Both the position numbers and the translations under genes were made by a program. Of a stretch of DNA of 64,000 bases, positions 10,727-49,729 are shown piece by piece. Under the pieces are notes generated by a model. It worked only from the letters and a program-made list of their open reading frames with translations. It had not been told where the DNA came from and ran no database searches. Positions within the stretch are counted from its first letter, which is position 1; each line of letters starts with the position of its first letter. Source of the stretch: an uncultured virus (IMG/VR IMGVR_UViG_3300025038_000006) (lineage: Duplodnaviria > Heunggongvirae > Uroviricota > Caudoviricetes); IMG/VR virus record IMGVR_UViG_3300025038_000006, one strand, 5' to 3'.

Positions 10727-10762
10727 GATAAAAAACCCTATTACAATAAATATAATAGGGTT

Positions 10763-10802
10763 ATTTTGGCATTGGAGATGTACTGTGGTTTTGGGGTGTT
10801 CC
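10763..10802 (-). promoter_or_regulatory. Late promoter cassette 2: GGAACAC-N27-CAAAAT
   Basis: GTGTTCC 10796-10802; ATTTTG 10763-10768; inverted repeat 10734-10743/10753-10762. Confidence 0.8.
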
Positions 10803-11019
10803 TAGTTTGAAATGACGGCTATATTTAGCGAATGTACTAGCGCCAACATACTAATATTGTTAAAGTATACGATTTTTATTCTATGCTTTTTTGTTTTATT
10901 TAAAGAATTGACACGGGGTAAAAATAGGTGACTAAATCGTTTCTTGATGAGGGGGTGTTAAGAGTGGCTGGTTTGCAAAAAAAAGTCTAAAGCTATGATT
11001 TAGAAAGTTTAAAAAAACT

Positions 11020-12951
11020 ATGAATCGATTCTCTACTTACTCGCCTAACAGGAATATTGAAATGTTTAACCAAGACAATCTTGAAATGCATAGCCCAAAT
11101 ATAGTTGATGACAATACCTTAAAAATTGCAGAAATTTTTCCGCACTGTGTGACTGAAGCCAGAGATGATAATGGTAATTTAAGATATGTCGTTGACTTCG
11201 ATTTATTGCGCCAAGAATTGTCTCAGTCACTGGTCGAAGGAGGGCAAGAGCGCTATCGCTTAGATTGGCCAGGTAAGCGTCAGGCTATTCTTGAGGCTAA
11301 TACACCTATCGCTAAGACGTTGCGCCCTGTCCGTGAAGAAAGTGTTAACTTTGATACTACTGAGAACTTGTTTATCGAAGGGGATAACTTAGAGGCACTT
11401 AAGCTCCTGCAAGAAAGTTATTTAGGTCAGGTTAAAATGATTTATATTGATCCACCTTATAATACGGGTAATGACTTTATCTATGAAGATGACTTCGCTG
11501 AAGATACCTCTGACTTTTTGCAACGCTCTGAACAAGTTGATGAAGAGGGTAATCGCTTAGTGACCAATACAGAAAGTAATGGTCGCTTTCACTCAGACTG
11601 GCTGACCATGATGTATAGTCGATTGAAACTAGCACGTAATCTACTAAAAGATGATGGCCTTATATTCATTAGTTGCGATGCAAATGAACAGGCAAACCTC
11701 AAAAAGATAGGTGACGAAATTTTCGGGTACCAAAATTTTGAGAGCGATATACATTGGAGACGAAGACACAATCAACCTAATGATAAATCAAAAATTATTG
11801 CGCGCGTTTCTGAAAACATTCTAGTTTACGCAAAAAATAGTATTATTTTGAAAGAAAGAGGCACTTATTATGGACTGCCATTATCAGAAAAAAGAGTTGC
11901 TGATTATAAAAACCCTGATAATGACCCAAAGGGTGATTGGACAACCAATCCTTGGAAAGCAGCTACTGGTAGAGGAGGTACAACCTATGAAATCATTACT
12001 CCAACAGGTCAGGTCCATAAGAATACATGGTATGGTAATAAAGTAACTTTTGAGCGACTAATTGATGAAGGTAGAGTTCATTGGACTGATAATGGAAATG
12101 GCTTACCTAGAATAAAAATTTACTTAAAGGATGCGAATGAACAAGGTCAGGCAGCTGTTAACTTTTTTAATCATACAGAATTTGGAAGCAATCAAGATGG
12201 ATCAAAAGAACTTGCAAGCCTATTTGGTGATGCAGGGTTATTTAGCAACCCTAAACCCACAAAGCTCATTTCATCCTTAATAAAGATAGCTACAAAAGAG
12301 GATGATCTTATTTTAGATTTCTTTGCTGGATCAGGTACTACTGCAGATTCTACCCTACAAATGAACATTGAAGACAGTATGAGACGCAAGTTCATTTTAA
12401 TTCAACTAGATGAAAGTACCGACGAAAAAAGTCAGGCCTTTAAAACAGGATACTCTACAATATCGGATTTATCCAAAGAACGTATACGTCGAGCAGGTCA
12501 AAAAATACTCGAAGATAACAAAGATAAGAAAGGTATCGAAGATTTGGATATCGGTTTCCGCGTGTTAAAAATCGACAGCACCAATATGAAAGAAGTGTAT
12601 TACACCCCTGATGAATACAGCCAAGATCAGCTTGAGAACTTTGAATCTCATATCAAAGAAGACCGCACTAGCGAGGACCTATTGTTCCAGGTTATGCTCG
12701 ACTGGGGCGTGCCTTTGTCTTTACCTATTGAAGTAAAAGAGATTAAAGATCATCTCGTCTATTACGTTGGCTTTAATAACCTTATTGCCTGCTTTGATAC
12801 CTTAACCCCTGAATTGGTTAATGAAATAGCAAAATATGAGCCGCTGAAGTTTGTCACCAGTGAGCGTGCTATCTCTCACGATCAAGACAAAACCAATATT
12901 AAGTCTCGCTTTGCGCAGCTATCACCGAATACTGATGTTAGGTTTATTTAA
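11020..12951 (+). CDS. mod: Type III restriction-modification methyltransferase (start may be ATG 11062)
   Basis: NLFIEGDNLEALKLL, IYIDPPYNTG, F.NPKP, LDFFAGSGTT, KFILIQL and DIGFRVLK motifs. Confidence 0.95.
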   Translation: MNRFSTYSPNRNIEMFNQDNLEMHSPNIVDDNTLKIAEIFPHCVTEARDDNGNLRYVVDFDLLRQELSQSLVEGGQERYRLDWPGKRQAILEANTPIAKTLRPVREESVNFDTTENLFIEGDNLEALKLLQESYLGQVKMIYIDPPYNTGNDFIYEDDFAEDTSDFLQRSEQVDEEGNRLVTNTESNGRFHSDWLTMMYSRLKLARNLLKDDGLIFISCDANEQANLKKIGDEIFGYQNFESDIHWRRRHNQPNDKSKIIARVSENILVYAKNSIILKERGTYYGLPLSEKRVADYKNPDNDPKGDWTTNPWKAATGRGGTTYEIITPTGQVHKNTWYGNKVTFERLIDEGRVHWTDNGNGLPRIKIYLKDANEQGQAAVNFFNHTEFGSNQDGSKELASLFGDAGLFSNPKPTKLISSLIKIATKEDDLILDFFAGSGTTADSTLQMNIEDSMRRKFILIQLDESTDEKSQAFKTGYSTISDLSKERIRRAGQKILEDNKDKKGIEDLDIGFRVLKIDSTNMKEVYYTPDEYSQDQLENFESHIKEDRTSEDLLFQVMLDWGVPLSLPIEVKEIKDHLVYYVGFNNLIACFDTLTPELVNEIAKYEPLKFVTSERAISHDQDKTNIKSRFAQLSPNTDVRFI

Positions 12952-12961
12952 GGAGAGCACA

Positions 12962-15900
12962 GTGAAAATTGAATTTAAAGCGCTCGACTATCAACTTAAT
13001 GCAGTAAAAGCAGTAGCCGACTGTTTTAAAGGACAACCAAAAGAGGTCGCTCAACGATATACAATTGATCAAGGAGCTAAAAGAGACAAAGTAGCAAAAC
13101 AACCAGTTCAGGCATCCCTTTTCCCTGAAGAAGACTTGTCAACTTCTCAACAATTAGATTTGATTGAGGAGTTAGAGATTGGGTATGCCAATGCTGAAAT
13201 CAGTGATCTAGATCATGTACTTAGTAATATTCAACAAGTACAGCGGAATCAGGGTCTGCCACCGTCAACTGAACTTGTCACCGATGATAATTCAGCTAAA
13301 AGTAAAGCCGGTATTAATCTCACTACCAGCCCTGTTAACTTAAATATTGAAATGGAGACCGGCACTGGAAAAACCTACTGTTACATTCGTAGCATGATGG
13401 AGCTCAATAAGCTATATGGCTGGTCTAAGTTTATCGTTGTTGTACCAAGCATTGCTATTCGTGAAGGCGTAGCTAAGACATTTGAAATGACGGCCAATTA
13501 CTTTCTAGAAACTTATGGCAAGAAGCCCAGATCCTTTGTGTATAACTCAGAACAACTACATGAGCTTGAAACCTTTAGTTCTGACTCGAATGTTAATGTA
13601 ATGATTATTAACATTCAAGCATTCAACTCGCGCAGTCAAAGTAATCGCCGTATATATGAACCATTAGATGATTTTGGTTCGAGAAGGCCTATTGATGTTA
13701 TCCGAAGGAATCGACCTATCGTGATTATTGATGAGCCACAAAAGCTAGGTTCAGATAATGCACTAAAATCACTATCAGAATTTGATCCCTTGTTTATCTT
13801 ACGTTATTCTGCAACCCATAAGCGTGACTACAATCTTGTATATCGACTAGATGCTCTAGACGCTTACAATCAAAAGTTGGTTAAAAAAATTAGTGTAAAA
13901 GGCATTGAGGTCCAAGGTCTTTCAGGTGCACATGGTTATCTATATCTCCAAGATATCCAAATATCACCTTCTGATCCCGTAGCTAGAATTGAGCTAGAGA
14001 TTAAGAATAACGCGGGTGTCAAACGTAAGATACGCCGTATTAAAAAAGGTGATAACTTGTATATTATCTCAGGCAATGGGCAGCAATATAAAGATCGTTA
14101 TGTTGTCTCTGAAATTGATGCTAGAGACCAGTCCCTCACTTTTGTGAACGGAATTAAAATCTCAGTGGGCCAAGCATTAGGACAGGTCGATGAAAAAATT
14201 ATGCGCACTATCCAAATTAGAGAAACCATTCGCGCCCATCTTCAAAAAGAGCGTGTGTTACACCAAAAAGGCTTAAAGGTACTTAGCCTGTTCTTCATTG
14301 ATGAGGTGTCAAAATATCGTAAATATGACTCAGAGGGCAATAAATTAGATGGCGAATATGCTCAGATATTTGTTGAGCAATATAAGCAAGTCGTTAATGA
14401 AATGATTGACTTAAACCTTGAGAACGATCCTTACATCGACTATCTCAAAAGTATTAATGTCGATATGACACATAATGGTTATTTCTCAGTGGATAAAAAC
14501 CAGCATATGGTTAACCCCAAAACCAAGAAGTTCGATGATGAAGAGCTGGGTAGAAAGGTAGACTTGGCTGATGATATAGATGCTTATGATCTCATTCTGA
14601 GAGATAAAGAGGCCCTACTGACTTTCCCGTCTGATTCTGATTCTGAAGAGGATAAAAATAAGAAAAATATTCGCTTTATCTTCTCTCATTCTGCATTGCG
14701 TGAAGGCTGGGACAACCCAAACGTATTTGTTATTTGTACACTTAAGCATTCGAATAATGAAATATCAAGGCGACAAGAGATTGGGCGTGGCTTACGTTTG
14801 GCAGTAAATAAAGATGGTATGCGTATGGATAGCAAAATCTTATCACCAGAAGATATTCATCGGATTAACAACTTAACCGTTGTCACCAATGAAAGCTATA
14901 CTGAGTTTGTCAACAGTTTTCAAAACGAGTTGAAGCAAGCTTTATCCAATCGACCGACCAAGGCTACTAGTAATTATTTCTATAATAAAATAATTACATT
15001 AAATGATGGTACTACTCGCAGTGTCAATGAAACTGAAGCTAAACTAATTGTCAGATACTTAACTAAATACGACTACACAGATGTAAATGACCACTTAACA
15101 CAGAACTACTATGATGCTTTAGCAGAAAACTCACTTGAACCATTGCCTGAAGAGCTTGATCCCATTGCTGACCAAGTAACCAAACTCATTAGTGGTATCT
15201 TTGATCCTAAATCACTGGAGGGCATGACTGAGAACGAAAATAAAACCACACATAATCCGATTAATAAAGATAACTTGCACAAAAAAGAGTTTATTGAGTT
15301 GTGGAATAAGATCAATCAAAAGGCTGTTTTTGAGATACGTATTGACAGCCAAAAGCTCATTAATCAAAGCATTCAAGCTATAGAAGGTGCTGCTCGTAAG
15401 AGGAATAATAATTTTGTTGAGACCCTTAGATATAAACTCGCCATGTCTACTCAGAAAGATGCTATATCTTATGATGCTTTAGTAAATAAAAAGCTTTTTG
15501 CTGACCCGAAAACGTCATCTGAATCGACAAATATTTCGGTTAGGTCTGAAGTGAAATATGACTTAGTAGGTTCCTTAAGTGAGCAGACTGATTTAACTAG
15601 AAAAAGTATTGTTGCTATATTACAAGGTATTAATAATGCGATCTTTGCGCAGTTTAAAAACAACCCAGAAGCCTTCATTAGAGAAGTGGCGCGATTGATT
15701 AATGAAGCTAGAGTGAGAATGGTTGTTCAAGGCTTGACCTATCATACAATCGATACAACCTACCCTCTCAATGAGGTCTTTGTTTCAAATCACAGAATAC
15801 CTAGTGACTCTCTGAAGTCAGAAAAGCATGTATTCGACTATGTTGTAACTGATTCAGCTACCGAAACAAAATTTGCTAAACAACTAGAGGGTGCAGATGA

Positions 15901-16198: not shown

Positions 16199-16202
16199 AT
16201 AC

Positions 16203-16231
16203 AAAAGCCACTACTCAAAGTAGTGGCTTTT
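16203..16231. terminator. Bidirectional intrinsic terminator
   Basis: AAAAGCCACTACT-CAA-AGTAGTGGCTTTT perfect inverted repeat between convergent genes. Confidence 0.88.
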
Positions 16232-16251
16232 CTTTCAACACTCCCTGAAAA

Positions 16252-16533: not shown

Positions 16534-16542
16534 GGTTAGTCC

Positions 16543-20941: not shown

Positions 20942-21562
20942 TTAACCAAAGATAGTTGTACCACCAATGGTAGAAACTGGTTTATAGCCACCAAAAGCGT
21001 TTAGTGCGTTGGTTAACAAGCCAGCCAGTTTGTTAGCAGTGCCAGCACCGATATCACCAGTTTGGCCAAAGTAGTTATAACGACAAGTTACCTGAACTTG
21101 CAGGATTTGGCTGCGGCTTGCTGAATCAATCTCACCACCACCGTCTGGGAAAGTGATCGCACAGTCTTTAAGCAAGTATTCAGTCTTACCTTTAATCTCA
21201 TTACCATCGGTAGCGAACCCATCATAAACACGTACTAACGGGATTTCGCCATTGTGTTTAATAACGATATCTTCTGCAAACTTGGCAATGGTGCCTGATT
21301 CGGTTTCAATCATGGTCCACTGGCCTTCAAAGTTTGTTTTAGGCGGCGCTGTAACGTGGGCCTGGAAACCATAGGCATAATCTGCGTCGGCTGGCTCGTG
21401 GTTGGTGATCATTGGACGCTGGAAGTTTTGAATAAGGATATAAAGGTTTTCGTAACCTTCTGGCTTACAAATTGCGTTACAAGCAAGCATGGCTGAACCC
21501 AAAGACTTGGCCAGCTCATGCATTTGTGAGTATGCTTGCAAGGTAGGTGAAGAACTTTTCAT
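20942..21562 (-). CDS. Putative tail tube protein
   Basis: First gene of a late unit; ILIQNFQRP...WTMIETESG...EIDSASRSQILQV...YNYFG resembles P1-like tube proteins; start reassigned to ATG 21562. Confidence 0.6.
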   Translation of the reverse strand: MKSSSPTLQAYSQMHELAKSLGSAMLACNAICKPEGYENLYILIQNFQRPMITNHEPADADYAYGFQAHVTAPPKTNFEGQWTMIETESGTIAKFAEDIVIKHNGEIPLVRVYDGFATDGNEIKGKTEYLLKDCAITFPDGGGEIDSASRSQILQVQVTCRYNYFGQTGDIGAGTANKLAGLLTNALNAFGGYKPVSTIGGTTIFG

Positions 21563-21597
21563 GGAAATAACCCTAATCAATAATAAGTGATAGGATT

Positions 21598-21637
21598 ATT
21601 TTGAGGTATAAAGGCATTTGGCTTTTAGGGGTGTTCC
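21598..21637 (-). promoter_or_regulatory. Late promoter cassette 3: GGAACAC-N27-CAAAAT
   Basis: GTGTTCC 21631-21637; ATTTTG 21598-21603; imperfect inverted repeat AATAACCCTAATCA/TGATAGGATTATT. Confidence 0.8.
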
Positions 21638-24508: not shown

Positions 24509-25048
24509 TTACGCTGCGTTCTGCTCTTTTACTTTCTCTAATTGGATCTCAAGGTCTTGTTTTTCTTTACCCTTAACTTCAATCACCTTGTCTAATTCTG
24601 CGGCCTCTTCTAACAGTAATTTTAACGTTTGGGCTTTGTTGGCTGGCGCTCTATTACGCTTGGTTCTAGTTACCTGGGCGCGAGCTCGTCGGGCACTAAA
24701 TCCCTTTTGGCCCTGGCTAACAAGTTTAGCGATCTCGTCAACTGATGCGTTGAATGACGGCTTATAAGAGTTATCAAAGTCACCCATAGTCGGCTGTGTC
24801 TTGCTGTTGATATCAATACGGAAGATATCTAGGCCGTCTGGCTGATCTGATTCAGGGGCTTCTCGAATATAAAGCTTTACAACCTGGCCACCGTCTAAAG
24901 CGATATGAACAGGCCTCGCACTGGCACCAGACACCCTTGATACTCTTAAAACATCAACAACAACAACTTGCTGCCTGGTTGTTTTGGCTAAACGCTTAAC
25001 GAAGTCGCTGACAAGCGATGTTTTTTGTGTAATCTCTGATAGTTTCAT
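24509..25048 (-). CDS. Hdf-like (DarA-fragment homolog) protein
   Basis: RVSGASARPVHIALDGGQVVKL...DIFRIDINSK parallels the DarA N-domain pattern, followed by a coiled coil. Confidence 0.6.
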   Translation of the reverse strand: MKLSEITQKTSLVSDFVKRLAKTTRQQVVVVDVLRVSRVSGASARPVHIALDGGQVVKLYIREAPESDQPDGLDIFRIDINSKTQPTMGDFDNSYKPSFNASVDEIAKLVSQGQKGFSARRARAQVTRTKRNRAPANKAQTLKLLLEEAAELDKVIEVKGKEKQDLEIQLEKVKEQNAA

Positions 25049-25085
25049 GAAAAAATAACCCCAAACAAATTAAATGATTGGGGTT

Positions 25086-25125
25086 ATTATCGCTTGCTGT
25101 TAGCTGTGATTAGTTGGGGTGTTCC
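25086..25125 (-). promoter_or_regulatory. Late promoter cassette 4: GGAACAC-N27-GATAAT
   Basis: GTGTTCC 25119-25125; ATTATC 25086-25091; inverted repeat 25054-25064/25078-25088. Confidence 0.8.
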
Positions 25126-26070: not shown

Positions 26071-27444
26071 TTACTTGGTGATTGTGGTTTCAAAGTAAAC
26101 TTGTCGAGCACAACCCTCTGGGCGTTTAACAAGTCTGATATCAACCTTCTCAAATGGATTGTCTGATCTTGGCGCAACTTCTAGACCGTAAAGCTTGCCT
26201 GATAGCTCTGCAACTGGTTGCAATAAGCCCGCTGAACTACAAGCGTTCAAGAAGCGACGGATTTCTGCGTCTGCATCGTTCACATAGCTGGCCATACCTT
26301 TGAGAAGGTGCTTTTTAGCAATGCTAACTACTGCGTTATCAACGTAAGTTGTGATTTCAGATGCGTTGATTAAGCGTAAAGCGCTTGTTTTGCTATCGTA
26401 CTGAGTTAAAGCATCACCATAAATCCAGCGATCGCCTGCATCGAAACGCTCGTTTAAGACCACGTTCACGCCAGCAGCCGCTAGGGCGTTTTGAGCCTCT
26501 TCATCAAGGCTGACGTTTGGTAACACTTCCATATCACGGAAGCTAACGGGAAAGTCGTAACCAGCAACAGGACGGTTAACAGGCGGGATACCAGACGCAT
26601 TGGTAAGGGCGTTACGAACAAGCAATTGGCCTAGGTAATCACCGACACAAGGGCGCCATTTTTTACGTGATAGTACGCTTGCGCTGTTTGAAGGGCGTGA
26701 TACGTTCGGGTTCCAGAATATCCAAAAACGATGGTCTTTAATGTTAATTGAGTCAGCAAGTGCCGCGGCTGCCACCCAGTCATTAATATTGCCTAAATCT
26801 AGCAGTACGTGACAGTTAAGCTTATCCATAACTTTGGTTGTAGCTTCAATAGTTGGCATATCGTCAGTTGAGCAAACAACGATATAGCGTGGGCGTTCAC
26901 GCATATCAAGTAGGCTACGTGTAATCTGTTCTGGTGTTGACTCAACAACCTTGCTGGCTGGCACGTCAACCACAATTTCAGCTTTACGGTAAGTGCCATG
27001 ATCTTTTAAGGCTTTAACGGCTTTTAGGGCTGAAACGACTTGAGTAGCATTGGTCTTAGAATACGTGGTTTCTACTTGCTCAAAGAAGTCATTGCTGCTA
27101 TCTAGCGCACCATGGAAGTCAAGCTTTTGACTGATATATGAGAAGTCATTAGGATAGTTGTTTTCAAGCTCGTCTGCGCCACCGCCGGTATATAGACGGC
27201 CTTGCAGTGATGTGATCTTGCTATCATCAACCTTATCTGCAAATGTAATGTCAAATAACAGGTTGTTTAACGGATCAGCTGCGTTAGTTGGTGTCTTATC
27301 ATCAACTACTTGTATCTTGGCTACGACGTTGTTATCAAAGCCGTATTCAGTAACAAGCTCGATAGTTGCTAATGCCTTACTTTCCTTGCTATTGGTGATA
27401 GTAACGGAAGTAGGCAGGATATTAATAAACAGTTGAGTTGCCAT
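26071..27444 (-). CDS. Contractile tail sheath protein (appears to lack the usual N-terminal module)
   Basis: NRPVAGYDF, LAAAGVNVV, IYGDALT...SALRLIN and RPEGCARQVYF sheath C-terminal pattern. Confidence 0.8.
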   Translation of the reverse strand: MATQLFINILPTSVTITNSKESKALATIELVTEYGFDNNVVAKIQVVDDKTPTNAADPLNNLLFDITFADKVDDSKITSLQGRLYTGGGADELENNYPNDFSYISQKLDFHGALDSSNDFFEQVETTYSKTNATQVVSALKAVKALKDHGTYRKAEIVVDVPASKVVESTPEQITRSLLDMRERPRYIVVCSTDDMPTIEATTKVMDKLNCHVLLDLGNINDWVAAAALADSINIKDHRFWIFWNPNVSRPSNSASVLSRKKWRPCVGDYLGQLLVRNALTNASGIPPVNRPVAGYDFPVSFRDMEVLPNVSLDEEAQNALAAAGVNVVLNERFDAGDRWIYGDALTQYDSKTSALRLINASEITTYVDNAVVSIAKKHLLKGMASYVNDADAEIRRFLNACSSAGLLQPVAELSGKLYGLEVAPRSDNPFEKVDIRLVKRPEGCARQVYFETTITK

Positions 27445-27475
27445 AAAAAATGCCTATATTGGTGAATATAGGCAT

Positions 27476-27515
27476 AGTATAGAGTTGGGCTAACAGTATT
27501 GTTTAGGGGTGTTCC
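27476..27515 (-). promoter_or_regulatory. Late promoter cassette 5: GGAACAC-N27-TATACT
   Basis: GTGTTCC 27509-27515; AGTATA 27476-27481; inverted repeat 27450-27460/27465-27475. Confidence 0.8.
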
Positions 27516-36543: not shown

Positions 36544-36575
36544 AAAAGACGGCTGCGATGCAATGCACCACAGCC
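36544..36575 (-). terminator. Probable intrinsic terminator/attenuator
   Basis: GGCTGTGGTGCA/TGCATCGCAGCC stem then GTCTTTT. Confidence 0.5.
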
Positions 36576-37054: not shown

Positions 37055-37089
37055 AAAAGAAAGGCCCTGTTGCCACAGACAACAAGGCC
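37055..37089 (-). terminator. Intrinsic terminator after the major capsid gene
   Basis: GGCCTTGTTG/CAACAGGGCC stem followed by TTTCTTTT. Confidence 0.7.
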
Positions 37090-37133: not shown

Positions 37134-38942
37134 TTAAAGTGTTGGTAAATTGCGTAATTCAATTAACATGCACTGATTGCGATAACGTGGAATTGGGTTA
37201 GCTTCTGCTGCCATACGGTTATAAACCGCTACGTCTTTTTCAAACGCATTGGCTGATGATGCTAGAACCATAGTTGGGACTGCCACAGTACCTACGAATG
37301 GTGCTTTAGCTGGTGTTGTTGCACGTGGTACTAACAACGCATAGCCGCCCTGGGTTAATTCATCTTCGTTGAACACGCCCATTGAGGCTGGCACGTAGTA
37401 AATGTTTGCACCAGTGTTTAACTGGCCAATGCGGTAGATTGAGTATTGATCACCGTACTGCTCGCCAGTTGGGGTATATTCGTCGCGGCTCATAGCTTCA
37501 AAGAACGCTGCACCACGGTCTGACACGTATAAATCGTACTGACCAATAGCTGTGTTGGTGATTGTTGATAGTGCGGTACGAGCTTTACCTAGGACAACAC
37601 GAATGTTTGAGTAAAGATCAGTTAATGTGGTATGAGTCACGCCAGCGATATCAGCATCAAACACTTTGACATGCTTCTCTTGGTTAGCTAAACACTGGTT
37701 AACTGCACCACGTAGCAAGCGGCCGTTTTGCTCAAAGTTGTACTTGTTGATAAAGATCATTTGAGCGGCTGCATACCAGTTAATGCCAAGCTCATTTTGT
37801 AGCTGGGTGATAGCGTCGATGGTAGCACTTGAACGTGCGCGGCTTGGATAAGCGTAAACGCCATAGTAGTTAAACGCCATGTCGTGACTTGGGGCGCGTA
37901 AAATATACTCACCTTTCTCGTCTTTACGTTCATAGTCAAAGATTAATTCAACTTCTACTTCATCTGCACCTGGGGTAGCACCATCGGTAGTGTCAAAAGC
38001 AACTTCAACTGTGTGATTGTCAAGGTCTGCAACTGCTGACTTAACGATAAAGGTATCAGCGCCTAAAGTAACCGGCTCAAGCGGCTGTAACGTGCTCTTA
38101 CCGCCAAAAGTTGGGTGGTTTCGATGATTATCATTAGCAACTTCCACGCCGCGAACTTTAATGCTAACTCGACCGCCCAAGAATGGAGCTTTGATAGAGT
38201 CTTTATCTACAACAAACTTGGTAGTTTTGTTGTCACGAATTTCTTTAGTGTAAGCAACATGTGATTCAAGGGTGAACTTACCCTCACCAGCATCTTCCAT
38301 TACCAATAGGTGACGGTTATCGAAGTATGGTAAACCAGCTTTTTCACCGTCGATTAATTCACCACGACGCATAACGCCCATATCCATGCCAGCGGTACCT
38401 TCGCCGGCAACGATTGGCACTTCGTTTGAGCCAGTAGGGTTAGGTAGCATTGAGATTAATGGGAGGCTGTTTGCGATACCCATAGTAATAACAACTTGTA
38501 CGGCAGCTGGTACTACTGATAAGGCTTCATGGTGGCTAAATGATAGGCTGTCGAACGATGGATCATTGTCATCACCGCGATGCGCGTTTTCAGTAAATGC
38601 GGTAGCAGCTGATAAAGCTGATTGCACAACTTCTACTGGTGGCATATCACCGCCGTTACGACGTTGATACTCTGCAATACCATCACGTAAGCCGTCAAAT
38701 ACCGCTTGCTTGCCAGCTGTTGTAGCTGCGATGTTTTGAGCCTCTAACAGTTTTTGCAATGACTCAGGAATTGCCTGTAATCCCATTTCACGGTCATGCG
38801 AGTTGGCTGCGATCATTGAGTCAAATTGTGCAACGTCAGATTGTTTGGTGTCGAACTTCGCAAATTCACGCATAAATTGGCGTGTTTTGGTTAATTCACT
38901 AGAAACAACGGATAAATGTTGTTTGGCTTGTTCTTTATTCAT
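37134..38942 (-). CDS. Major capsid protein (P1 gp23-like)
   Basis: 602 aa, first gene of a late unit with a terminator behind it; EYQRRNGGDMP and TIDAITQLQNELG motifs; propeptide-like N-terminus. Confidence 0.8.
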   Translation of the reverse strand: MNKEQAKQHLSVVSSELTKTRQFMREFAKFDTKQSDVAQFDSMIAANSHDREMGLQAIPESLQKLLEAQNIAATTAGKQAVFDGLRDGIAEYQRRNGGDMPPVEVVQSALSAATAFTENAHRGDDNDPSFDSLSFSHHEALSVVPAAVQVVITMGIANSLPLISMLPNPTGSNEVPIVAGEGTAGMDMGVMRRGELIDGEKAGLPYFDNRHLLVMEDAGEGKFTLESHVAYTKEIRDNKTTKFVVDKDSIKAPFLGGRVSIKVRGVEVANDNHRNHPTFGGKSTLQPLEPVTLGADTFIVKSAVADLDNHTVEVAFDTTDGATPGADEVEVELIFDYERKDEKGEYILRAPSHDMAFNYYGVYAYPSRARSSATIDAITQLQNELGINWYAAAQMIFINKYNFEQNGRLLRGAVNQCLANQEKHVKVFDADIAGVTHTTLTDLYSNIRVVLGKARTALSTITNTAIGQYDLYVSDRGAAFFEAMSRDEYTPTGEQYGDQYSIYRIGQLNTGANIYYVPASMGVFNEDELTQGGYALLVPRATTPAKAPFVGTVAVPTMVLASSANAFEKDVAVYNRMAAEANPIPRYRNQCMLIELRNLPTL

Positions 38943-38992
38943 AAGGCACTTCCTATCGTCATTGAAAAAAATTAAACATATCCGATAGGGTT

Positions 38993-39032
38993 ATATTAAG
39001 ACTCGCCTACATCGCCTATTTAGGGGTGTTCC
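38993..39032 (-). promoter_or_regulatory. Late promoter cassette 6: GGAACAC-N27-TAATAT
   Basis: GTGTTCC 39026-39032; ATATTA 38993-38998; inverted repeat CCTATCG/CGATAGG at 38952-38958/38983-38989. Confidence 0.8.
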
Positions 39033-39038
39033 AACAGC

Positions 39039-39062
39039 AAAAAACCGCCATTTAAGGCGGTT
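39039..39062 (-). terminator. Intrinsic terminator
   Basis: AACCGCC/GGCGGTT stem with a U run on the minus strand. Confidence 0.75.
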
Positions 39063-41209: not shown

Positions 41210-42576
41210 TAAGCGACAACAGTTGATGGCTGTACGTTATTATGGGGTTTATCACCCCCAACATTTGAGGCTACTAAGTTTGAAGGCGACGCACTTGTAC
41301 TTTGCGTTGCAGGCCTTGTGTTACCTCTAATATTACTCACTACAAAGTTTAAGTCGTGAGTGTGGCTAGGTATTTCAGCAACGGTAAGCTTGTGGTCATA
41401 TTCACCAAACTCTGTTTTTAGTTTTTTAGTCCACTCAGGGTCGGCCGCTTTGGTTGATATGCCAACAAGCGTTTGACCTTCTGCGAATCTAGCCCACGTG
41501 CCATAACCTAAAGCCGCTTTAACTTCTGCACCGCTCTTATAGTCATTGGTCGTCACATACAATGAGCCAATTGGTAATTCAGTGACCTTGTTTTGGGCAA
41601 CTGTTAACTGCTTTTGTAACTCGTCAATCTGTTGTTTCATTCCAGCCAGATCAGACTCTCTTAGATATTGGGTATGAGGGTGTTCTGCACTAGTATGGGC
41701 AGATAAATCAGTCTTTTTAGCGTATTGCGTATGCGGATCAGCCGCACTTGTATGGGCTGATAAGTCTGTTTTCTTGGCATACTGCGAATGAGGGTCAGCC
41801 GCCTTGATATGATTAGCAAGACCGTCCTCTAAGTTGGCTATATCTTTACCTTGCTGCGTTAAATTGCCACCCTGCTGAGATAACGTACCTTTTTGAGCGT
41901 CAAGCTCTTTTTGTAGTGCCTGGTTTGCCGCCTCAAGCTGGCTAGTTTTCTGATCGCTATCTTTTTTGAGTGTGTATTGAGGGTGTGGGTTTGCGTGGGC
42001 CAGGTGTCCTGCTAAGTCGCCAGCTGCACCGTTGATGTTTTGGCCAAGCTTATCCACCTTCTTATCGAGCTGTGTAAGCCTATCAAGCTTAATATATTGA
42101 GGGTGAGGATCTGCTGCCGCTAAATGGTCTTCCATCATCTTAACAGCGATAGGGCTGTTGGGATCGGCTTCAATTGTTATATTCTCAACGTCAATTTCGC
42201 CTAACGACAAGCCAAAGCTGCCAACAAATGTGACGTTTGCATAAACGGTAAACAATGGTCCGGTACTGGCTGCAATTGCAAAAAGCTTGTTGTCGCTGGT
42301 TAGTAATCCAACTTCGTAGATATCTTTTGAAGTGACACTATTTAAGGTCACGCTAAACCGTAAAGACTTACTTTCGTTCTCGATGCCGCTTGTCACGATA
42401 TCGGACCGCATAGTCTCCGTTTTAATGCGTGTTTCTCTGCCATTTGGCACGTATTTTGACGTGCCAGCGACAAATGTCTTTAAAGATAAGCTTATGCCTT
42501 GCTTTTGAGCGTCTAACACTGCTAAACGCCCTGCTTCGGTTATTTTAAATATAATTGGGTTTGGTTTATTAGCCAT
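41191..42576 (-). CDS. Tail fibre protein
   Basis: ITEAGR...IYEVGLLT..NKLFA baseplate-anchor domain, five xPHxQY repeats, PIGSLY...GTW...LTVAEIPSHTH...HNNVQP tip. Confidence 0.88.
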   Translation of the reverse strand: MANKPNPIIFKITEAGRLAVLDAQKQGISLSLKTFVAGTSKYVPNGRETRIKTETMRSDIVTSGIENESKSLRFSVTLNSVTSKDIYEVGLLTSDNKLFAIAASTGPLFTVYANVTFVGSFGLSLGEIDVENITIEADPNSPIAVKMMEDHLAAADPHPQYIKLDRLTQLDKKVDKLGQNINGAAGDLAGHLAHANPHPQYTLKKDSDQKTSQLEAANQALQKELDAQKGTLSQQGGNLTQQGKDIANLEDGLANHIKAADPHSQYAKKTDLSAHTSAADPHTQYAKKTDLSAHTSAEHPHTQYLRESDLAGMKQQIDELQKQLTVAQNKVTELPIGSLYVTTNDYKSGAEVKAALGYGTWARFAEGQTLVGISTKAADPEWTKKLKTEFGEYDHKLTVAEIPSHTHDLNFVVSNIRGNTRPATQSTSASPSNLVASNVGGDKPHNNVQPSTVVAYWLRTA

Positions 42577-42611
42577 GACTTACGCAATCCTTAAAATTTC
42601 AGTACTGCATA

Positions 42612-42650
42612 AGTTTAACCACTTAGGCTGGCAAGTCTGCCGTGTGTTCC
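42612..42650 (-). promoter_or_regulatory. Late promoter cassette 7: GGAACAC-N26-TAAACT
   Basis: GTGTTCC 42644-42650; AGTTTA 42612-42617; weak inverted repeat CTTACGCA/TGCATAAG. Confidence 0.72.
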
Positions 42651-44226: not shown

Positions 44227-44234
44227 CTACCCCA

Positions 44235-44765
44235 TTAAATACTAAAAGGCATTAAACCATAGTCGCTATCCTTGTCGTTTGAGCTATCATCAAGCGTTAT
44301 TGGAGCGGTTGACATAAGGTAGCCGCCGTGTATCTTTCTAGCCGCCCAAATAGCCAATAAAACGGCCATGTGGCCATTGGTAATACCCATTGAATCAAAG
44401 TCTAATACTTTTCCTCGTTCGTCCATTTTGCGCATCTGAATAACGTCTTTTGGCTCATATCGTCTTAACGCATCCTCAATCACAATTAAGCCTGATCGCT
44501 GGGCTTCGTTATAGACAGCCATAACCTCAGCCATTTGCTCGGACTCGTTAAAACTCATATCCCAGTAATCAAAAATCATTGGCGTATCAGTGACCACCAC
44601 AGCATTATCTTTTGGTACTGGCTGCTCTTTCCACGTGGCTTGTTTTTTAAGCATTACCCTGCCTGATGCTGGCAAGACAACGCCCAATACGCGTATAGCC
44701 TCGCCAGCGTAAGCGGCCGCCCTTGCATCAATAATTACTGGTGTGTCTTGTGCTGCGTTATTCAT
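44235..44765 (-). CDS. Hypothetical phage protein
   Basis: Coupled ORF in the protease-terminase operon. Confidence 0.6.
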   Translation of the reverse strand: MNNAAQDTPVIIDARAAAYAGEAIRVLGVVLPASGRVMLKKQATWKEQPVPKDNAVVVTDTPMIFDYWDMSFNESEQMAEVMAVYNEAQRSGLIVIEDALRRYEPKDVIQMRKMDERGKVLDFDSMGITNGHMAVLLAIWAARKIHGGYLMSTAPITLDDSSNDKDSDYGLMPFSI

Positions 44766-45765
44766 TGCTAGGTGGCTCTATCTTAGTTTCGGTGATTACA
44801 CCTGTTTTAAGATCAATAGCGACCTTAACTCCCAACTCTGTATAGTCATCGGTAACGTCTGCCTCAGTAACAAAGCTATTAAGCTTCTCATAACTATCAC
44901 GGCTTCCCCCAATTGGCTTGCCGCCCTCGCCTGGTATTGGCTCTCTTGGGCTGTTAATCGCGGGCCCGTTAGGATTATTAGGGTCAAGCGGTATCGTTGG
45001 CTTCTCTGGATCATAATTAGGATTAGGCCGCGTCGGTAAGCTCTCGTATGGCTCTCCAGTATCGGTCACCTCGTCCCAAGCACCGCCCAAGCCTACAAAC
45101 TCAGGAATAGCACCGACAATGGTGCAATCAACAGTGGCGATAAACAGGTTTTTAAGATCGGTTGTTGCACTATCAGGATAAAGACTGTTTTCTAACACCC
45201 TAAAATTCCAGTCATCTTTAATTGGCTTACCCTCAAAAACCCCAACGTCATAAGGTACTGGGAATGTTCTTTTCTCTTCGTGTTTCCAAAAATTCGCAAA
45301 CTGCCTGGCAATATCTGATGCACTGTGGGGATCGGGGCTAAAAAAGGCAATTTGACAGCGATAAGCCACGGGAACCGATCGCATTTGCACTACTCGCTTT
45401 AATGGGTCTTGAGGTAGTACCACGTTTACCCAATACGGTAAGCCGCCTACCTGGTCATATTCAGGCGGCGTTTCAATCGGACTAATGGCCGTCATAAGCA
45501 CTGGCAAGTAAACAGACGAACCGGACTCATTTTTATAACCAGCGTTTTTTGCGTTATCATTCTCTTGTATTGCTTTTAGCATGCCCTCTACGTCATCAAC
45601 CATTGATGTTTTAGCCACAACAATAGCTGCTTCCAACCTGCGTCGTTTCCAGTCATAAACGCCCTGAGTGGTTGGCATGCACCATTGTCTAAAGTCTCTT
45701 AGTTTCATGGCCCAAGCTATCTGTAAGCATTCAAGCGGTGATAGCAGTCGTTTTGTCTTGCTCAT
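44758..45765 (-). CDS. Hypothetical virion protein (possible tail completion protein)
   Basis: Coupled ORF in a late operon; function not recognised with confidence. Confidence 0.45.
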   Translation of the reverse strand: MSKTKRLLSPLECLQIAWAMKLRDFRQWCMPTTQGVYDWKRRRLEAAIVVAKTSMVDDVEGMLKAIQENDNAKNAGYKNESGSSVYLPVLMTAISPIETPPEYDQVGGLPYWVNVVLPQDPLKRVVQMRSVPVAYRCQIAFFSPDPHSASDIARQFANFWKHEEKRTFPVPYDVGVFEGKPIKDDWNFRVLENSLYPDSATTDLKNLFIATVDCTIVGAIPEFVGLGGAWDEVTDTGEPYESLPTRPNPNYDPEKPTIPLDPNNPNGPAINSPREPIPGEGGKPIGGSRDSYEKLNSFVTEADVTDDYTELGVKVAIDLKTGVITETKIEPPSNE

Positions 45766-45779
45766 TGCTCAATCCTTAA

Positions 45780-46712
45780 TTAAAGGCCACGGAATCTATC
45801 AACGATGCTGATGCGCTCTTCTTGTCTATCTGACTTGCCAGCCGCTTTATCTAGCTCGCTTATGCGTAAATCTGCGTCTGACGTATTGCCAATATGAAAG
45901 CTATCCCATTGAGCCTTAATTTCATCAAACGGCTTAGATGGGCAAATTAGGCTGTCAAAAAGCTCTAATTCTCGCTGCTTCTTGCGTTCCAATACTTTTT
46001 GCCGGCGCATTTCTGCATTGATCAAAGCGTCCTGGGCCGCTAGTGCTTCACGCTGATAATGGCTTACCAGTGACTCTGAATGTAGGGCCGTTTGCATTGA
46101 ATCGTATTGAGCAACGATGATACGCTCTAAGGCCTCTTTTAAGACAATCTGATCCTGCGGTAAATCAATGAGGCTATCAAAGCATGCCTCACCTTCCGTA
46201 TAAGCACCGTTTAAAATACTGTCAAAGATGCCATCGCCTTTGTTTGTCGCGTAATTAGGTGTTCGCACATAGTCAAAGCCATGGAAGCCAGTAACCTCAT
46301 AATATCCGTCTGGCTTGCGTCTGCGGTTAATAGCACTGCTAAACCCGCCAGCTTTATTCGCGTATAAGCGTGCTGCAAATTGGCCGTCGTCTGTATCTAA
46401 GAACTCATGCTGGGTAACAACGTTGCCGTCATCGTCAGCTTCAAGCCTGATCGTGCGTAAGGCTGGCTGGATTTTAATAATACGGCCCGTCTTTTCATCC
46501 ACCCATTGGTCTGGTGGGTACATGCCAAAACGTGCTCGTATCTCATGGCCATTAAAGCCAAACAAATCACCACTGCTAACAAGCTCTTGAACCTCTGGTG
46601 AGTTAATCTTGTTAACCATTGAGCGAATATCTAAATCTGAACGGTCCTGGCCGTTGTATTTGCGGCCACGATCCGCCAGGTTGTATGTAATAACTTTCGT
46701 TTTCTTAGCCAT
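45780..46712 (-). CDS. Prohead (head-processing) protease, P1 Pro-like
   Basis: FGFNGH..R, HEFLDTDDG, GGFSSA and GFDYV..PNY motifs; start reassigned to ATG 46712. Confidence 0.78.
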   Translation of the reverse strand: MAKKTKVITYNLADRGRKYNGQDRSDLDIRSMVNKINSPEVQELVSSGDLFGFNGHEIRARFGMYPPDQWVDEKTGRIIKIQPALRTIRLEADDDGNVVTQHEFLDTDDGQFAARLYANKAGGFSSAINRRRKPDGYYEVTGFHGFDYVRTPNYATNKGDGIFDSILNGAYTEGEACFDSLIDLPQDQIVLKEALERIIVAQYDSMQTALHSESLVSHYQREALAAQDALINAEMRRQKVLERKKQRELELFDSLICPSKPFDEIKAQWDSFHIGNTSDADLRISELDKAAGKSDRQEERISIVDRFRGL

Positions 46713-46757
46713 GAAAAAACCCCTTAAACAAGGCATAAATATTAATAATATGGCCTT

Positions 46758-46796
46758 AGTTTAAGGGGTCAAGCTGTTTTGCCTTTGGGGTGTTCC
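46758..46796 (-). promoter_or_regulatory. Late promoter cassette 8: GGAACAC-N26-TAAACT
   Basis: GTGTTCC 46790-46796; AGTTTA 46758-46763; inverted repeat 46719-46734/46753-46769. Confidence 0.8.
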
Positions 46797-46805
46797 TTTG
46801 GAGTC

Positions 46806-49658
46806 TTAGTCCCAAGCTCTACTCATACCAATACCGCCTGTAATTGCATGTGCCAAATCTCTATCAGACACGTTTTGGCCTATGCTCTCATTATTTGACT
46901 GAACAATGATGGGCTTGTCTAGACCGCCACCTGCCAGCGGCAATCTAAATGAAGGCATATCTGGTATATTAAATACGTTTTTAAGAATAGAAGAACCTAA
47001 ATCAAGGCTTAATGATTGCTTGGCTGACTCGTATTTAGGTAGGCTGGCCGGTTGATAGGCTGGCGTTTTACCTGCAATAAAATTGTTAGCTAAGCCACCA
47101 ACGTTAACACCTAACACACTGTTAGTTGTTTTGGTTTTCTGCTGAACCGATTGAACCGCTGTATTATTGTAGATACCCTCTGCAATTTTCGCACGCTCTC
47201 TCTTTTCAGCCTCAACTGCACCTGGTCGCTCGTAGTGCTCTGACATAATAGCCCCGGACTGGCCTGCTGTTTTGGCTTGTTTTAGCTTATTACCAGCCGC
47301 CTTCTCTTTACCCTTCGTTAGCTCATACTGAATAAAAGCTAACTGCTCTTCGAACGACGCTTGCTGTACTGACTTACCCATAGTGCTACGGAAGTCTGCA
47401 AGCCTGCTATCTCGCCATTGAGCTAAGCCATGTGCCCTATATACACCGTTTTTATCTTTATCCCCTTGAGCTCTAGGGTCGAACATACTTTCTTTTTGAA
47501 TGTTGCCTACAATGCCGGCGGCTTGTTCTTTGGTCCACCCTTGAGACATAAAGTATTGCATAGCCTCGTCACGCTTGGCTTTTTGCTCCTGTGTTGTTAG
47601 TCTGCTTGAGCTAATATCAGTAATGCTACCTGTTGGTAGTGTCCCATCTGGTATCATACGTGCAATAGTGGGCTTAATCTTGCCTGACTTAATTTCTTCG
47701 TAGTAGTCTTTGTTAGGCGCTGCGGTATTGCCGTATTTTTCGCCTTGCTTGTAGTCTGAAACCCACCCTTCTTTTGTATATACCGCAACGTGACCGTAAT
47801 TATGCTTAGACTTACTGTTTGAAGGCATGCTCATAACATCGCCAACTTGAGGGGTATAACCCTCACTGTATGCCACCTCTTGAAACTTGCCTTTGTTAAG
47901 GTTGATTAGGTTTTTCGCCGCGTCAACCCCGTTACCCGATGCCTGTAAACCTTGAGCACGAAAAGCATCATTCACGTACTTAGCGCAAGCGCCAAGCGAT
48001 ACATATGCCGCATTTTTAATCGCATAATCACTGGCATTTGCTGCCGCTTGAGTTGGTGCGCCACTGCCACTATCGCCACTGAAAAAGCTACTAACGCCAT
48101 CACCCATTCTTGATAGCCACGACTTCATGCCGCCGGCCGCTTCACTTAGTTTAGAAAGGACCGGTGCTAATCCGGTCTCCCACTTAGTTTGCATTTTTTG
48201 AGGTAAGTTGTAAGCCTTAATACTATCGGTCCATGACTTAATATGTGGTGAAGCTGTACGGCCTAAAACCTCGCCGCCCTCGCTACCTATCCAGCCACCC
48301 ACGGCCGCCCCAATAGCGGTACCCACCACTGGGACTGGTATTAGTACTGAGCCGATTGCACCACCGGCCATAGCCCCAGCGCCTCCACCAGCTATGCTAC
48401 CAATACCCGCTGTTCTTTCTTCATTGTCGAGCTCGTCCCATCGACTTGCCAGGCTGCCTGCTCCAATAGCTGTGGCCAGAGGGGTTAGCACCCTAGTTTT
48501 ACCAAGTGCTTTAGCGGCATTACCAATATGTTTACCGCCAGACTTGCCAGCACCTAAGATAGCGGCCCCAGCTCCAGACAAGATGGCCTTAACGCCTTTA
48601 CCTTTACCCTTGCTCTTATCCTTGCCCCTGCCTTTGCCTTTTCCGCCGCCTCCCAAAAGACCTAAGCCACGCCCTAATTTACCTAATAGTGAGCCCTCAC
48701 CACTCGGCATCCTCTTTAGGATCTCACCTAGCGTTTCCTCGTTCTGCTTATTGTGTCTTGCCTGTTCTTTTGGCAATGGCTCTTTACGCTTCAAGCTTTT
48801 GTATTTAGAGAATGAGAACCTGCCGGCCCTTAAAGCTGCCTTGCCAGCCATTCCACCCATTTTTCCAGCTTGTGTAGCCATATTAAATAGCGGGCTTGCT
48901 ACGTCTTTAACCTCATTCATTGACGCAATTAGCGGATCAATATCTTGAGTACTGCCATAACTACCATAACTTGTGCGGCCACTCTTGGCTATCTTAGACA
49001 ATGAGTCAAACAGCGACTTCTCTTTGGCTGTAAAACGGCCTAGCTCGTCACGTTCACTGTCATTTTTCTTTTTCTCACGTCCGTTTTTGCCAATAGGATT
49101 GTTTGCCTTACGTATTGCACCAGTTGCAATAGGTACGATGCCAGCTACGTCATTAGTAGTATCTAAACCTTCCCTGCCTCTATCAGCCGTTGATCTATTA
49201 ACATCATTTGAGCCGCTATCGCGTTGGATATCAGCCCTATTTGTAGCTGATCCTGACTTGACGGTAGCATTTGAGGTGACATTGCTAAGAGCACCACCGT
49301 CCTTGCTACCCGCTGCCTTTTTCTCGCTTTTTACTGTCTGACTTGCACTCCTTAATTCCTGCTTATGTTGCTGCTTTGACTGTTCCTGGCCTTGCATACC
49401 TGGCTGGCTCGCATTATTTCTATCTACGTTATTAGGGTCATAAGTTGGCACAACGCCCTGAATACGCATAGACTTTTTGTTGGCTATACGCTCATTAGAC
49501 TTGGCTATACGGTTTAATACCGTTTGGTTAATCTGATTTTGTGATTTGAGTATCTCAATGATTTCTTGAGTATCTTCACCAATGGATTTAATGCCGCTTT
49601 CTAACCGCTTGGTACCAACGATGAAGCCTTGGTCGTCATAATTAAGATAAGTTGCCAT
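46806..49658 (-). CDS. Tape-measure-like protein with CHAP/NlpC-type and phage tail lysozyme domains
   Basis: Gly/Ala-rich hydrophobic segment; CAKYV...GNG...GDV...YGHVAVY...WVSD; QAAGIVGNIQKES...GLAQW. Confidence 0.8.
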   Translation of the reverse strand: MATYLNYDDQGFIVGTKRLESGIKSIGEDTQEIIEILKSQNQINQTVLNRIAKSNERIANKKSMRIQGVVPTYDPNNVDRNNASQPGMQGQEQSKQQHKQELRSASQTVKSEKKAAGSKDGGALSNVTSNATVKSGSATNRADIQRDSGSNDVNRSTADRGREGLDTTNDVAGIVPIATGAIRKANNPIGKNGREKKKNDSERDELGRFTAKEKSLFDSLSKIAKSGRTSYGSYGSTQDIDPLIASMNEVKDVASPLFNMATQAGKMGGMAGKAALRAGRFSFSKYKSLKRKEPLPKEQARHNKQNEETLGEILKRMPSGEGSLLGKLGRGLGLLGGGGKGKGRGKDKSKGKGKGVKAILSGAGAAILGAGKSGGKHIGNAAKALGKTRVLTPLATAIGAGSLASRWDELDNEERTAGIGSIAGGGAGAMAGGAIGSVLIPVPVVGTAIGAAVGGWIGSEGGEVLGRTASPHIKSWTDSIKAYNLPQKMQTKWETGLAPVLSKLSEAAGGMKSWLSRMGDGVSSFFSGDSGSGAPTQAAANASDYAIKNAAYVSLGACAKYVNDAFRAQGLQASGNGVDAAKNLINLNKGKFQEVAYSEGYTPQVGDVMSMPSNSKSKHNYGHVAVYTKEGWVSDYKQGEKYGNTAAPNKDYYEEIKSGKIKPTIARMIPDGTLPTGSITDISSSRLTTQEQKAKRDEAMQYFMSQGWTKEQAAGIVGNIQKESMFDPRAQGDKDKNGVYRAHGLAQWRDSRLADFRSTMGKSVQQASFEEQLAFIQYELTKGKEKAAGNKLKQAKTAGQSGAIMSEHYERPGAVEAEKRERAKIAEGIYNNTAVQSVQQKTKTTNSVLGVNVGGLANNFIAGKTPAYQPASLPKYESAKQSLSLDLGSSILKNVFNIPDMPSFRLPLAGGGLDKPIIVQSNNESIGQNVSDRDLAHAITGGIGMSRAWD

Positions 49659-49690
49659 GATAAAGCCTTAATACTGTACGTGTGGCTTGA

Positions 49691-49729
49691 ATTATGGCAT
49701 TACTAGCGGGTTGTGACTTTGAGTGTTCC
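49691..49729 (-). promoter_or_regulatory. Late promoter cassette 9: GGAACAC-N26-CATAAT
   Basis: GTGTTCC 49723-49729; ATTATG 49691-49696; short AAGCC/GGCTT repeat. Confidence 0.75.

Follow-up and report, generated by a model that had tools for sequence, protein, structure and literature searches.

The stretch of DNA analysed here, referred to as the window, is the 64,000-nucleotide (nt) IMG/VR record IMGVR_UViG_3300025038_000006, from an uncultured virus of the Caudoviricetes, and the elements in question are the junctions between its late operons, at which promoter, predicted hairpin and ribosome-binding site (RBS) are fused. A P1-type structural and lysis module occupies the minus strand from approximately 365 to 49658, as judged from PHROG and Pfam matches and from direct comparison with P1, and it contains genes for the portal, Pro, a PacB-like terminase, sheath, tube, baseplate, DarA, DdrB and an Hdf-like protein. 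The P1 proteins Prt, Pro, DarA, DdrB, BplA, gp25 and PacB match the window at 24-45% identity, the Pro homologue being 36% identical to P1 Pro over 163 amino acids (aa). Beyond the late module lies a lambdoid early region that encodes a CI-like repressor, a CII-like protein, Ant, an O-like replication protein and a VRR-NUC nuclease, and host-like cargo at 49885-53098 (a FabG-like reductase, LrgA/LrgB and a LysR regulator) separates the late from the early region. Among named records a Psychrobacter sanguinis contig comes closest, and among virus records the closest is one listed as a provirus. Among deposited phages no megablast match to the window was found; only two distant sheath matches were obtained, neither of them close. 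The window is an integrated Psychrobacter prophage with P1-like structural genes.

A search for GGAACAC found ten copies in the window. Nine are intergenic, lie on the minus (coding) strand and precede structural or DarA/Hdf-type genes; the tenth sits within a gene (688-694), and the early and cargo regions hold none. The box is mostly extended to GGAACACCCC and is followed, after a spacer of 26-27 nt, by an nAnnnT hexamer that starts at position 34 or 35 counted from the first G of the box (CAAAAT, GATAAT, TATACT, TAATAT, TAAACT or CATAAT at the nine sites). The original prediction had spoken of late promoters at nine operons and had named a -10 box but not this upstream box; as a motif class defined by box and hexamer, the nine promoters are real. 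The boxes, the cassettes to which they belong and the hairpins and terminators within these are as follows.

2786-2795, 10793-10802, 21628-21637, 25116-25125, 27506-27515, 39023-39032, 42641-42650, 46787-46796 and 49720-49729, minus strand: the nine intergenic GGAACAC boxes from the motif search, the higher coordinate being the first G in each.
2717-2840, minus strand: P2795 cassette, outside the range of the original prediction (box 2795-2786; -10 GATAAT 2761-2756; ATG 2719).
2840-2810, minus strand: ordinary terminator before the P2795 box.
10724-10802, minus strand: darA-operon cassette (box 10802-10793; -10 CAAAAT 10768-10763; predicted +1 10756; ATG 10726).
10762-10753 and 10743-10734, minus strand: arms of the darA hairpin, with a run of six T across the arm end; terminator-like in a terminator scan.
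21560-21637, minus strand: tube-operon cassette (box 21637-21628; -10 CAAAAT 21603-21598; predicted +1 21591; ATG 21562).
21597-21588 and 21579-21569, minus strand: arms of the tube hairpin, with one U.G pair and one bulge, followed by TTATTTCC.
25046-25125, minus strand: hdf-like cassette (box 25125-25116; -10 GATAAT 25091-25086; predicted +1 25079; ATG 25048).
25088-25078 and 25064-25054, minus strand: arms of the hdf hairpin, followed by a T6 run.
27442-27515, minus strand: sheath cassette (box 27515-27506; -10 TATACT 27481-27476; predicted +1 27469; ATG 27444).
27475-27450, minus strand: sheath hairpin, followed by a T6 run; terminator-like in the scan and conserved in relatives.
38940-39062, minus strand: P39032 cassette (box 39032-39023; -10 TAATAT 38998-38993; ATG 38942).
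39062-39043, minus strand: ordinary terminator immediately before the P39032 box.
38989-38983 (CCTATCG) and 38958-38952 (CGATAGG), minus strand: arms of the P39032 hairpin, of which the 3' arm runs into the Shine-Dalgarno sequence (SD) AGGAAG; no T-run.
42574-42650, minus strand: P42650 cassette (box 42650-42641; -10 TAAACT 42617-42612; ATG 42576).
42614-42604 and 42588-42578, minus strand: arms of the P42650 hairpin, with the SD AAGGA in the loop and not in an arm; no T-run.
46710-46796, minus strand: cassette of Pro (head-processing) (box 46796-46787; -10 TAAACT 46763-46758; probable ATG 46712).
46769-46753 (5' arm, containing the -10) and 46734-46719 (3' arm), minus strand: pro hairpin, followed by a T-run.
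49656-49763, minus strand: cassette of the tape-measure/Sit-like operon, P49729 (box 49729-49720; -10 CATAAT 49696-49691; ATG 49658).
49763-49746, minus strand: ordinary terminator before the P49729 box.

Folding of read-through RNA began 20 nt before the hexamer and ended at the AUG; local RNA was folded from 7 nt past the hexamer. At the nine window promoters the read-through folds ranged from -5.9 to -26.2 kcal/mol, compared with -0.5 to -3.9 kcal/mol for the local ones, the individual values being -26.2 vs -3.9 (pro), -17.5 vs -0.5 (hdf), -16.1 vs -1.6 (P42650), -16.0 vs -1.4 (darA), -12.2 vs -0.5 (sheath), -11.5 vs -0.7 (P2795) and -11.4 vs -1.6 kcal/mol (tube). Eight of the nine contained a dominant helix of -10 to -25 kcal/mol that begins in the -10/+1 DNA, ahead of the predicted +1, and ends a few nt from the AUG, on or beside the SD. 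At P2795 the pairing is moderate and joins a stretch just upstream of the -10 with CAATGA, which adjoins the SD GAGG. The exception is the tape-measure promoter P49729, at which a weak 5-bp pairing, AAGCC/GGCTT, was found within a read-through fold of -5.9 kcal/mol. The genes downstream of the darA and hdf hairpins carry a DarA_N Pfam match and an Hdf-like PHROG match, respectively.

Four inverted repeats had been named as clear cases by the original prediction, and all four are exact and occur once each (10734-10762, 25054-25088, 27450-27475 and 46719-46769), with no match in any of 100 shuffles; they lie on the minus strand between a -10-like hexamer and a start codon. Weaker hairpins had been proposed at the other five promoters. 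Four of these stand (tube, -10.7; P42650, -12.3; P39032, -11.5; P2795, -10.4 kcal/mol), while that of P49729 reaches only -3.7 kcal/mol. The assertion that the arm sequences differ between copies was correct in part, as arms are unrelated at some promoters and between some orthologues, while darA, tube, hdf and P39032 have in common an AACCC(T/C)A core immediately past the -10. The placement of the SD in or next to the right arm likewise applies to most cassettes and not to P42650.

The hairpins are concentrated at these sites. When leaders of fixed geometry were folded for 39 minus-strand gene starts, the nine promoter-proximal ones had a median of -11.4 kcal/mol, compared with -5.95 kcal/mol for the 30 others (p = 0.005). 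The window holds 26 perfect inverted repeats (arms of at least 9 bp, loop of 3-35 nt), four of which fall within the nine -10-to-ATG intervals that together make up 0.67% of its length (binomial p = 2.7e-5). The longest open reading frame was misleading at two sites, where the start that follows the hairpin and is common to relatives is ATG 46712 (Pro) and ATG 21562 (the first tube-operon gene); the Pro homologue most likely starts at ATG 46712, past the hairpin and T-run.

Relatives were gathered via the sheath protein, at sheath identities of 95% down to 39%, and their late regions were compared. The box-spacer-hexamer pattern was found on one strand 8, 9 and 9 times in the relatives G003, G004 and G007, respectively, and 0-1 times in a reversed control. 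The window and nine relatives, near-identical relatives being excluded, were then scanned for GGAACA followed by a hexamer with A2, T6 and at least 3/6 matches at offset 33-36 and by an open ATG or GTG downstream; the scan covered stretches of 26.5-80 kb of G332, G260, G112, G157, G070 and G216, and individual loci of G003, G004 and G005. This gave 74 candidate promoters with uniform leaders, mostly of 23-31 nt. A site at window 4593, inside coding sequence and with a 55-nt leader, was considered as a tenth promoter and was not counted.

The best-conserved position downstream of the hexamer in these candidates is an A at hexamer+7 (54 of 74), directly preceded by a pyrimidine in 55. This arrangement follows the usual start-site rule for bacterial RNA polymerase, and transcription is predicted from this pattern to start at the conserved A, 7 nt after the hexamer. 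The local leader would then be approximately 25-31 nt long at seven of the nine window promoters, and 39 nt (pro) and 44 nt (P39032) at the others. The original prediction had proposed that local transcripts lack most of the left arm, and the geometry agrees: the 5' arm begins 19 to 4 nt upstream of the predicted +1 at all nine, so that locally started RNA should be without most of it. As the start region is predicted to be equally open with a +1 placed anywhere from 5 to 9 nt past the hexamer, this conclusion does not depend on the exact start base. No read matched from a raw-read RNA run of the best-matching sample, a result that weighs neither way, and RNA-library contigs of a relative span the hdf cassette, although contigs cannot show ends or exclude DNA.

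Relative to the predicted +1 the box spans approximately -46 to -37, which is the position of an activator site and not of a -35 element. Between box and hexamer the 74 candidates carry almost no information, and no -35 is present. We infer that the cassette promoters are activator-dependent. That GGAAC might serve as the -35 of an extracytoplasmic function (ECF) sigma factor was also considered and rejected, as conservation is lacking 16-17 nt past the box and is found instead in the hexamer, 26-27 nt away. A GGAACAC, GGAACAT or GGAACAA box is common to P1-like prophages of several Moraxellaceae genera. At the end of the early operon (53341-54920, minus strand) are genes for a helix-turn-helix protein of 229 aa and for an unknown protein of 296 aa, and that these two occupy the expected position of a late activator is pure speculation.

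The 3' arm holds the sole SD-like G-run (TAGGGTT, TGGGGTT, TAGGCA or AAGGGGT). At six of the nine window promoters, positions -14 to +3 have a predicted openness of 0.18-0.32 when the RNA is read-through and of 0.46-0.59 when it is local, rising for instance from 0.27 to 0.58 at the tube operon and from 0.20 to 0.48 at P42650. Over the 74 candidates the mean is 0.34 for read-through and 0.52 for local RNA, and the openness rises by at least 0.1 in 55 and falls by at least 0.1 in one.

Many of the hairpins also resemble terminators. Four in the window (darA, hdf, sheath and pro) are followed by T6 and then ATG, and that of the tube operon by TTATTT; a scan for consensus terminators returned those of darA and sheath, its loop limit of 3-8 nt excluding hdf and pro. 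A T-run of at least 4 stands immediately before the ATG in 36 of the 74 candidates. Where the window hairpin is weak or has no T-run (2795, 39032 and 49729), an ordinary terminator lies immediately upstream of the box in each case. An embedded hairpin, defined as one of -9 kcal/mol or below with its 5' end upstream of +1 and its 3' end in the leader, is present in 56 of the 74 candidates and at eight of the nine window promoters. It occurs alone in 47, an upstream or in-spacer terminator alone in 10, and both in 9; the two are negatively associated (odds ratio 0.15, p = 0.0018, n = 74). Common to these arrangements is a terminator-like hairpin that cannot arise in the local transcript. On the plus strand, the darA hairpin (10734-10766) is followed by TTATTTT, the complement of the CAAAAT -10, and could thus be a two-way terminator against the divergent methyltransferase region.

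The same architecture is often rebuilt from other sequence in the relatives. The P42650 orthologue in G003 pairs different arms, CCTACACTAAGT (holding the -10) with ACTTAGTGTAGG (holding the SD), in a stem of 12 perfect pairs that ends in the SD and has no T-run. The darA and tape-measure orthologues of G003 also have strong hairpins of other sequence, the latter being GAGTGCC/GGCACTC at -19.2 kcal/mol, in contrast to the weak pairing at P49729 in the window. In the sheath family a GCCTAT/ATAGGC core is kept, with the 5' arm past the -10 in some phages and on the -10 in others. Because the 5' arm shifts in this way among relatives, RNAalifold on sequence-based family alignments was only partly useful, and a pooled alignment was used instead, comprising 18 cassettes that represent 5 gene families in 7 phages and have the arm past the -10. 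In this alignment 92.6% of cells are paired, compared with 74.4 +/- 2.4% in shuffles (0 of 500 reached the observed value) and 22-53% when the partner was slid, and both sides change in 6 of 9 pairs. Relatedness inflates these covariation figures, but the slid controls retain that relatedness. In the pro stem, 3 of 11 pairs are compensatory across six relatives. Conservation and covariation of the stems in homologous phages, which the original prediction had named as a test, are thus observed. Over the relatives as a whole the stem-loop lies past the -10, on the -10 or between the box and the -10, and a hairpin with a T-run lies between box and -10 in G157 and G216, its 5' arm being formed by the box. 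An example of the box as an arm in relatives is GGAACACGGC-A6-GCCGTGTT-T8.

We consider it probable, on the motif, geometry, folding and covariation described above, that the late-operon junctions are compact promoter/terminator/RBS cassettes that insulate each late operon. Such a cassette, of approximately 70-95 nt, would comprise in order the stop codon of the preceding gene, the box GGAACAC(CCC) at about -46 to -37, a sigma70-type -10, the hairpin, often a U-run, and the AUG. The 5' arm would be encoded by the -10, discriminator and +1 DNA, and the hairpin could thus form only in RNA arriving from upstream. In this read-through RNA the hairpin with its U-run would act as an intrinsic terminator that ends the upstream operon, and it would also bury the SD and start region, leaving any residual read-through poorly translated. 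Local RNA would start at the conserved A, lack 4-19 nt of the 5' arm and have an open leader, and should therefore be translated. We think that termination and RBS masking probably both apply. Strong hairpins without a T-run (P42650 with its orthologues, hdf in G332, and P39032) speak for independent selection on masking. The T-runs after many hairpins, and the tendency of hairpins and upstream terminators to stand in for each other, argue that ending the upstream operon matters no less than concealing the RBS. The claim that read-through RNA is blocked or terminated was thus partly supported, by geometry, predicted openness, T-runs and stem covariation; the expected change in folding between long and local leaders appeared as a rise in openness at six promoters and scarcely at P2795, P39032 and P49729, and the SD of P42650 sits in a loop.

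Several observations weigh against the insulating cassette. At the three promoters with upstream terminators the openness shifts by just 0.01 to 0.12 (P2795, from 0.53 to 0.65; P39032, 0.45 vs 0.46, no gain; P49729, no gain), and an embedded hairpin and an upstream terminator are both missing from 8 of the 74 candidates. The hairpins are AT-rich, with 3-5 G-C pairs, and some loops are long, reaching 13 nt (hdf) and 29 nt (pro, counting perfect arms only), which makes terminator efficiency uncertain. The sense and antisense strands fold with energies that are not significantly different (-14.95 vs -14.33 kcal/mol, p = 0.15), and energy is thus no proof by itself that RNA of the sense strand is the active form. 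The predicted +1 is drawn from geometry and conservation only. Some of the 74 candidates may be false, the site at window 4593 being an example, and as the candidates are related by descent the p-values overstate the case. Finally, no homologue of P1 Lpa was found with a single query: tblastn against the window gave a best E of 4.2, and none of G001, G002 and G007 gave a match at E <= 1.

A simpler account would be that plain operon terminators have been packed onto the next promoter, the hairpins serving only to end and stabilise the upstream mRNA and the overlap with -10 and SD being a by-product of compaction with no translational role. The T-runs in 36 of 74 candidates and the tendency of hairpins and ordinary upstream terminators to replace each other would follow from it. 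So would the three sites at which a whole hairpin with its T-run lies upstream of the -10 and leaves the RBS untouched (G157 30234 and 34941; G216 8352), and the minimal intergenic spaces, in which one stop codon overlaps a box: the first G of the sheath box is the last base of the upstream gene's TAG. However, strong hairpins without a T-run keep the same geometry at P42650 and its G003 orthologue, at hdf in G332 (CCACCT/AGGTGG) and at P39032, and their conservation indicates that termination alone is insufficient; moreover, in almost every case the SD-like G-run is covered by the 3' arm or adjoins it. We therefore regard this account as unlikely, though it is the strongest of the rivals.

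The converse, which was the principal reading of the original prediction, is pure translational gating of the T4 gene e type, in which the hairpins would only hide the RBS and the T-runs would be U-rich spacers between SD and AUG. The SD carried by the 3' arm, the predicted difference in openness between read-through and local RNA and the T4 precedent as described in passages of PMC3014915 are all in its favour. A hairpin followed immediately by T6 is, however, the canonical form of an intrinsic terminator, and two were flagged as such by the scan; the negative association with ordinary terminators would be unexpected if nothing terminated, and three of the nine window promoters show no RBS effect. 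Gating alone is accordingly less probable still, and we think it improbable.

Much less can be said for a start upstream of the hairpin, with the hairpin as a 5' stabiliser or as an attenuator overcome by Q-like antitermination and the hexamer as a pause signal. The order of box, -10-like hexamer, hairpin and U-run is superficially like the PR'-qut-tR' arrangement of lambda. Yet the stop codon of the preceding gene stands directly before the box and leaves no space in which another promoter could lie, a start ahead of the 5' arm has no place because this arm touches or overlaps the hexamer, the units number nine per genome and not one, and an A is conserved at hexamer+7; this alternative is very unlikely.

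That the repeats are DNA palindromes, operators over the promoter bound by a dimeric protein and not RNA structures, is scarcely credible: a AACCCTAT/ATAGGGTT core is common to several arms and the sense and antisense energies are alike, but arm spacing ranges from 4 to 29 nt in the window, arm sequences bear no relation to one another at some promoters and between orthologues, 49 of 808 pairs are U.G pairs in the sense orientation, and T-runs lie only on the coding-strand side adjoining the ATG.

The insulating cassette can be compared with three known systems. In T4, as described in passages of PMC3014915, the genes e, soc, 49 and I-TevI are silenced by an RBS-sequestering helix. The DNA of its 5' strand houses a late promoter, and the late transcripts are translated because they are without that strand. 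The likeness to these passages lies in an SD or AUG paired in long transcripts and a late promoter within the DNA of the 5' strand. Pairing of the SD and start in long RNA is predicted at six of the nine window promoters and not at three, and geometry and the conserved A would place the local start inside or after the 5' strand at all nine. T4 late promoters, TATAAATA, are read by gp55/gp33, whereas the window has a sigma70-type -10 with an upstream GGAACAC box, and the element would resemble the T4 design in its working without being a member of that family. Host and phage lineage are also unrelated to those of T4, and whereas a few single genes are silenced in early and middle RNA there, here nearly every late operon junction is of this kind, many with a U-run expected to cause termination as well. 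The proposed mechanism is the same as that of T4; promoter type, host, the added terminator form and systematic use differ.

The closest architectural match is the promoter-early stem-loop (PeSL) of RB49 and phi1, described in passages of PMC2839356 as an intergenic stop codon, promoter, stem-loop, SD and ATG, in which the stem-loop overlaps the -10, lies between the promoter elements or lies just downstream, and acts as a terminator or attenuator of upstream transcription. The window has this layout, and the varied stem positions given in those passages match those seen in the relatives. In contrast, PeSLs as described there are strong early sigma70 promoters with -35 and -10, beside ORFans in the hyperplastic regions of lytic T4-type phages, whereas the present promoters have no -35 and are activator-type late promoters of temperate P1-like prophages, followed not by ORFans but by genes for sheath, tube, Pro, DarA, Hdf-like and tape-measure-like proteins. 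The passages of PMC2839356 make no statement on RBS masking.

P1 itself shares the homologous structural module and several late promoters with a -10 and no -35 ahead of late operons. Of the 11 late promoters annotated in AF234172, four (LPsit, LPdar, LPpac and LP23) have a hairpin with the 5' arm on or abutting the -10 and the 3' arm over the SD, and read-through RNA from these folds at -10.9 to -21.2 kcal/mol, compared with -0.9 to -6.3 kcal/mol for local RNA. All four hairpins, for instance that of LPsit, CTCGTAGAAT...ATTCTACGAG(G), are predicted to form only in read-through RNA. P1 has a 9-bp '-22 region', AAGTGACTT-like and 4 nt from the -10, whereas the box of the window lies 26-27 nt away and the positions before the hexamer are unconserved; and P1 is a plasmid, whereas the present phage is an integrated prophage with a lambdoid early region. 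A literature search returned T4 reviews and nothing on P1-type late promoters inside hairpins, nor anything on this Psychrobacter phage group, which does not establish absence from print in either case.

Two further features of the window were noted. Within the tail-fibre operon, two strong ordinary terminators (36551-36575 and 37063-37089, minus strand) are followed by no GGAACAC promoter, so that the downstream fibre genes must rely on read-through; this may be an attenuation that sets the dose of the fibre genes. The O-like replication gene (57040-57996) contains, at 57534-57673, clustered TCGGATTT/AAATCCGA inverted repeats that resemble the iterons of a lambda-type origin.

More broadly, and tentatively, a temperate P1-like lineage of the Moraxellaceae (Psychrobacter, Moraxella and allies) might use one modular late cassette at essentially every late operon, with a putative activator reading GGAACAC at about -41, so that its late genes are shielded at both the transcriptional and the translational level from any RNA initiated elsewhere than at their own promoter; part of this logic might also operate in P1 (LPsit, LPdar, LPpac and LP23), perhaps unnoticed. 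P1 offers testable examples of hairpin-embedded late promoters, the new late-promoter motif implies a new activator to look for, and the cassettes would provide very short (70-95 nt) self-insulating promoter/terminator/RBS parts for engineering. If transcript mapping agrees, the arrangement would be a general design rule and not an oddity of single T4 genes. If true, it would allow a temperate phage to keep its lysis and structural genes silent against read-through from the host, cargo or neighbouring operons, because the promoter itself destroys the silencing hairpin.

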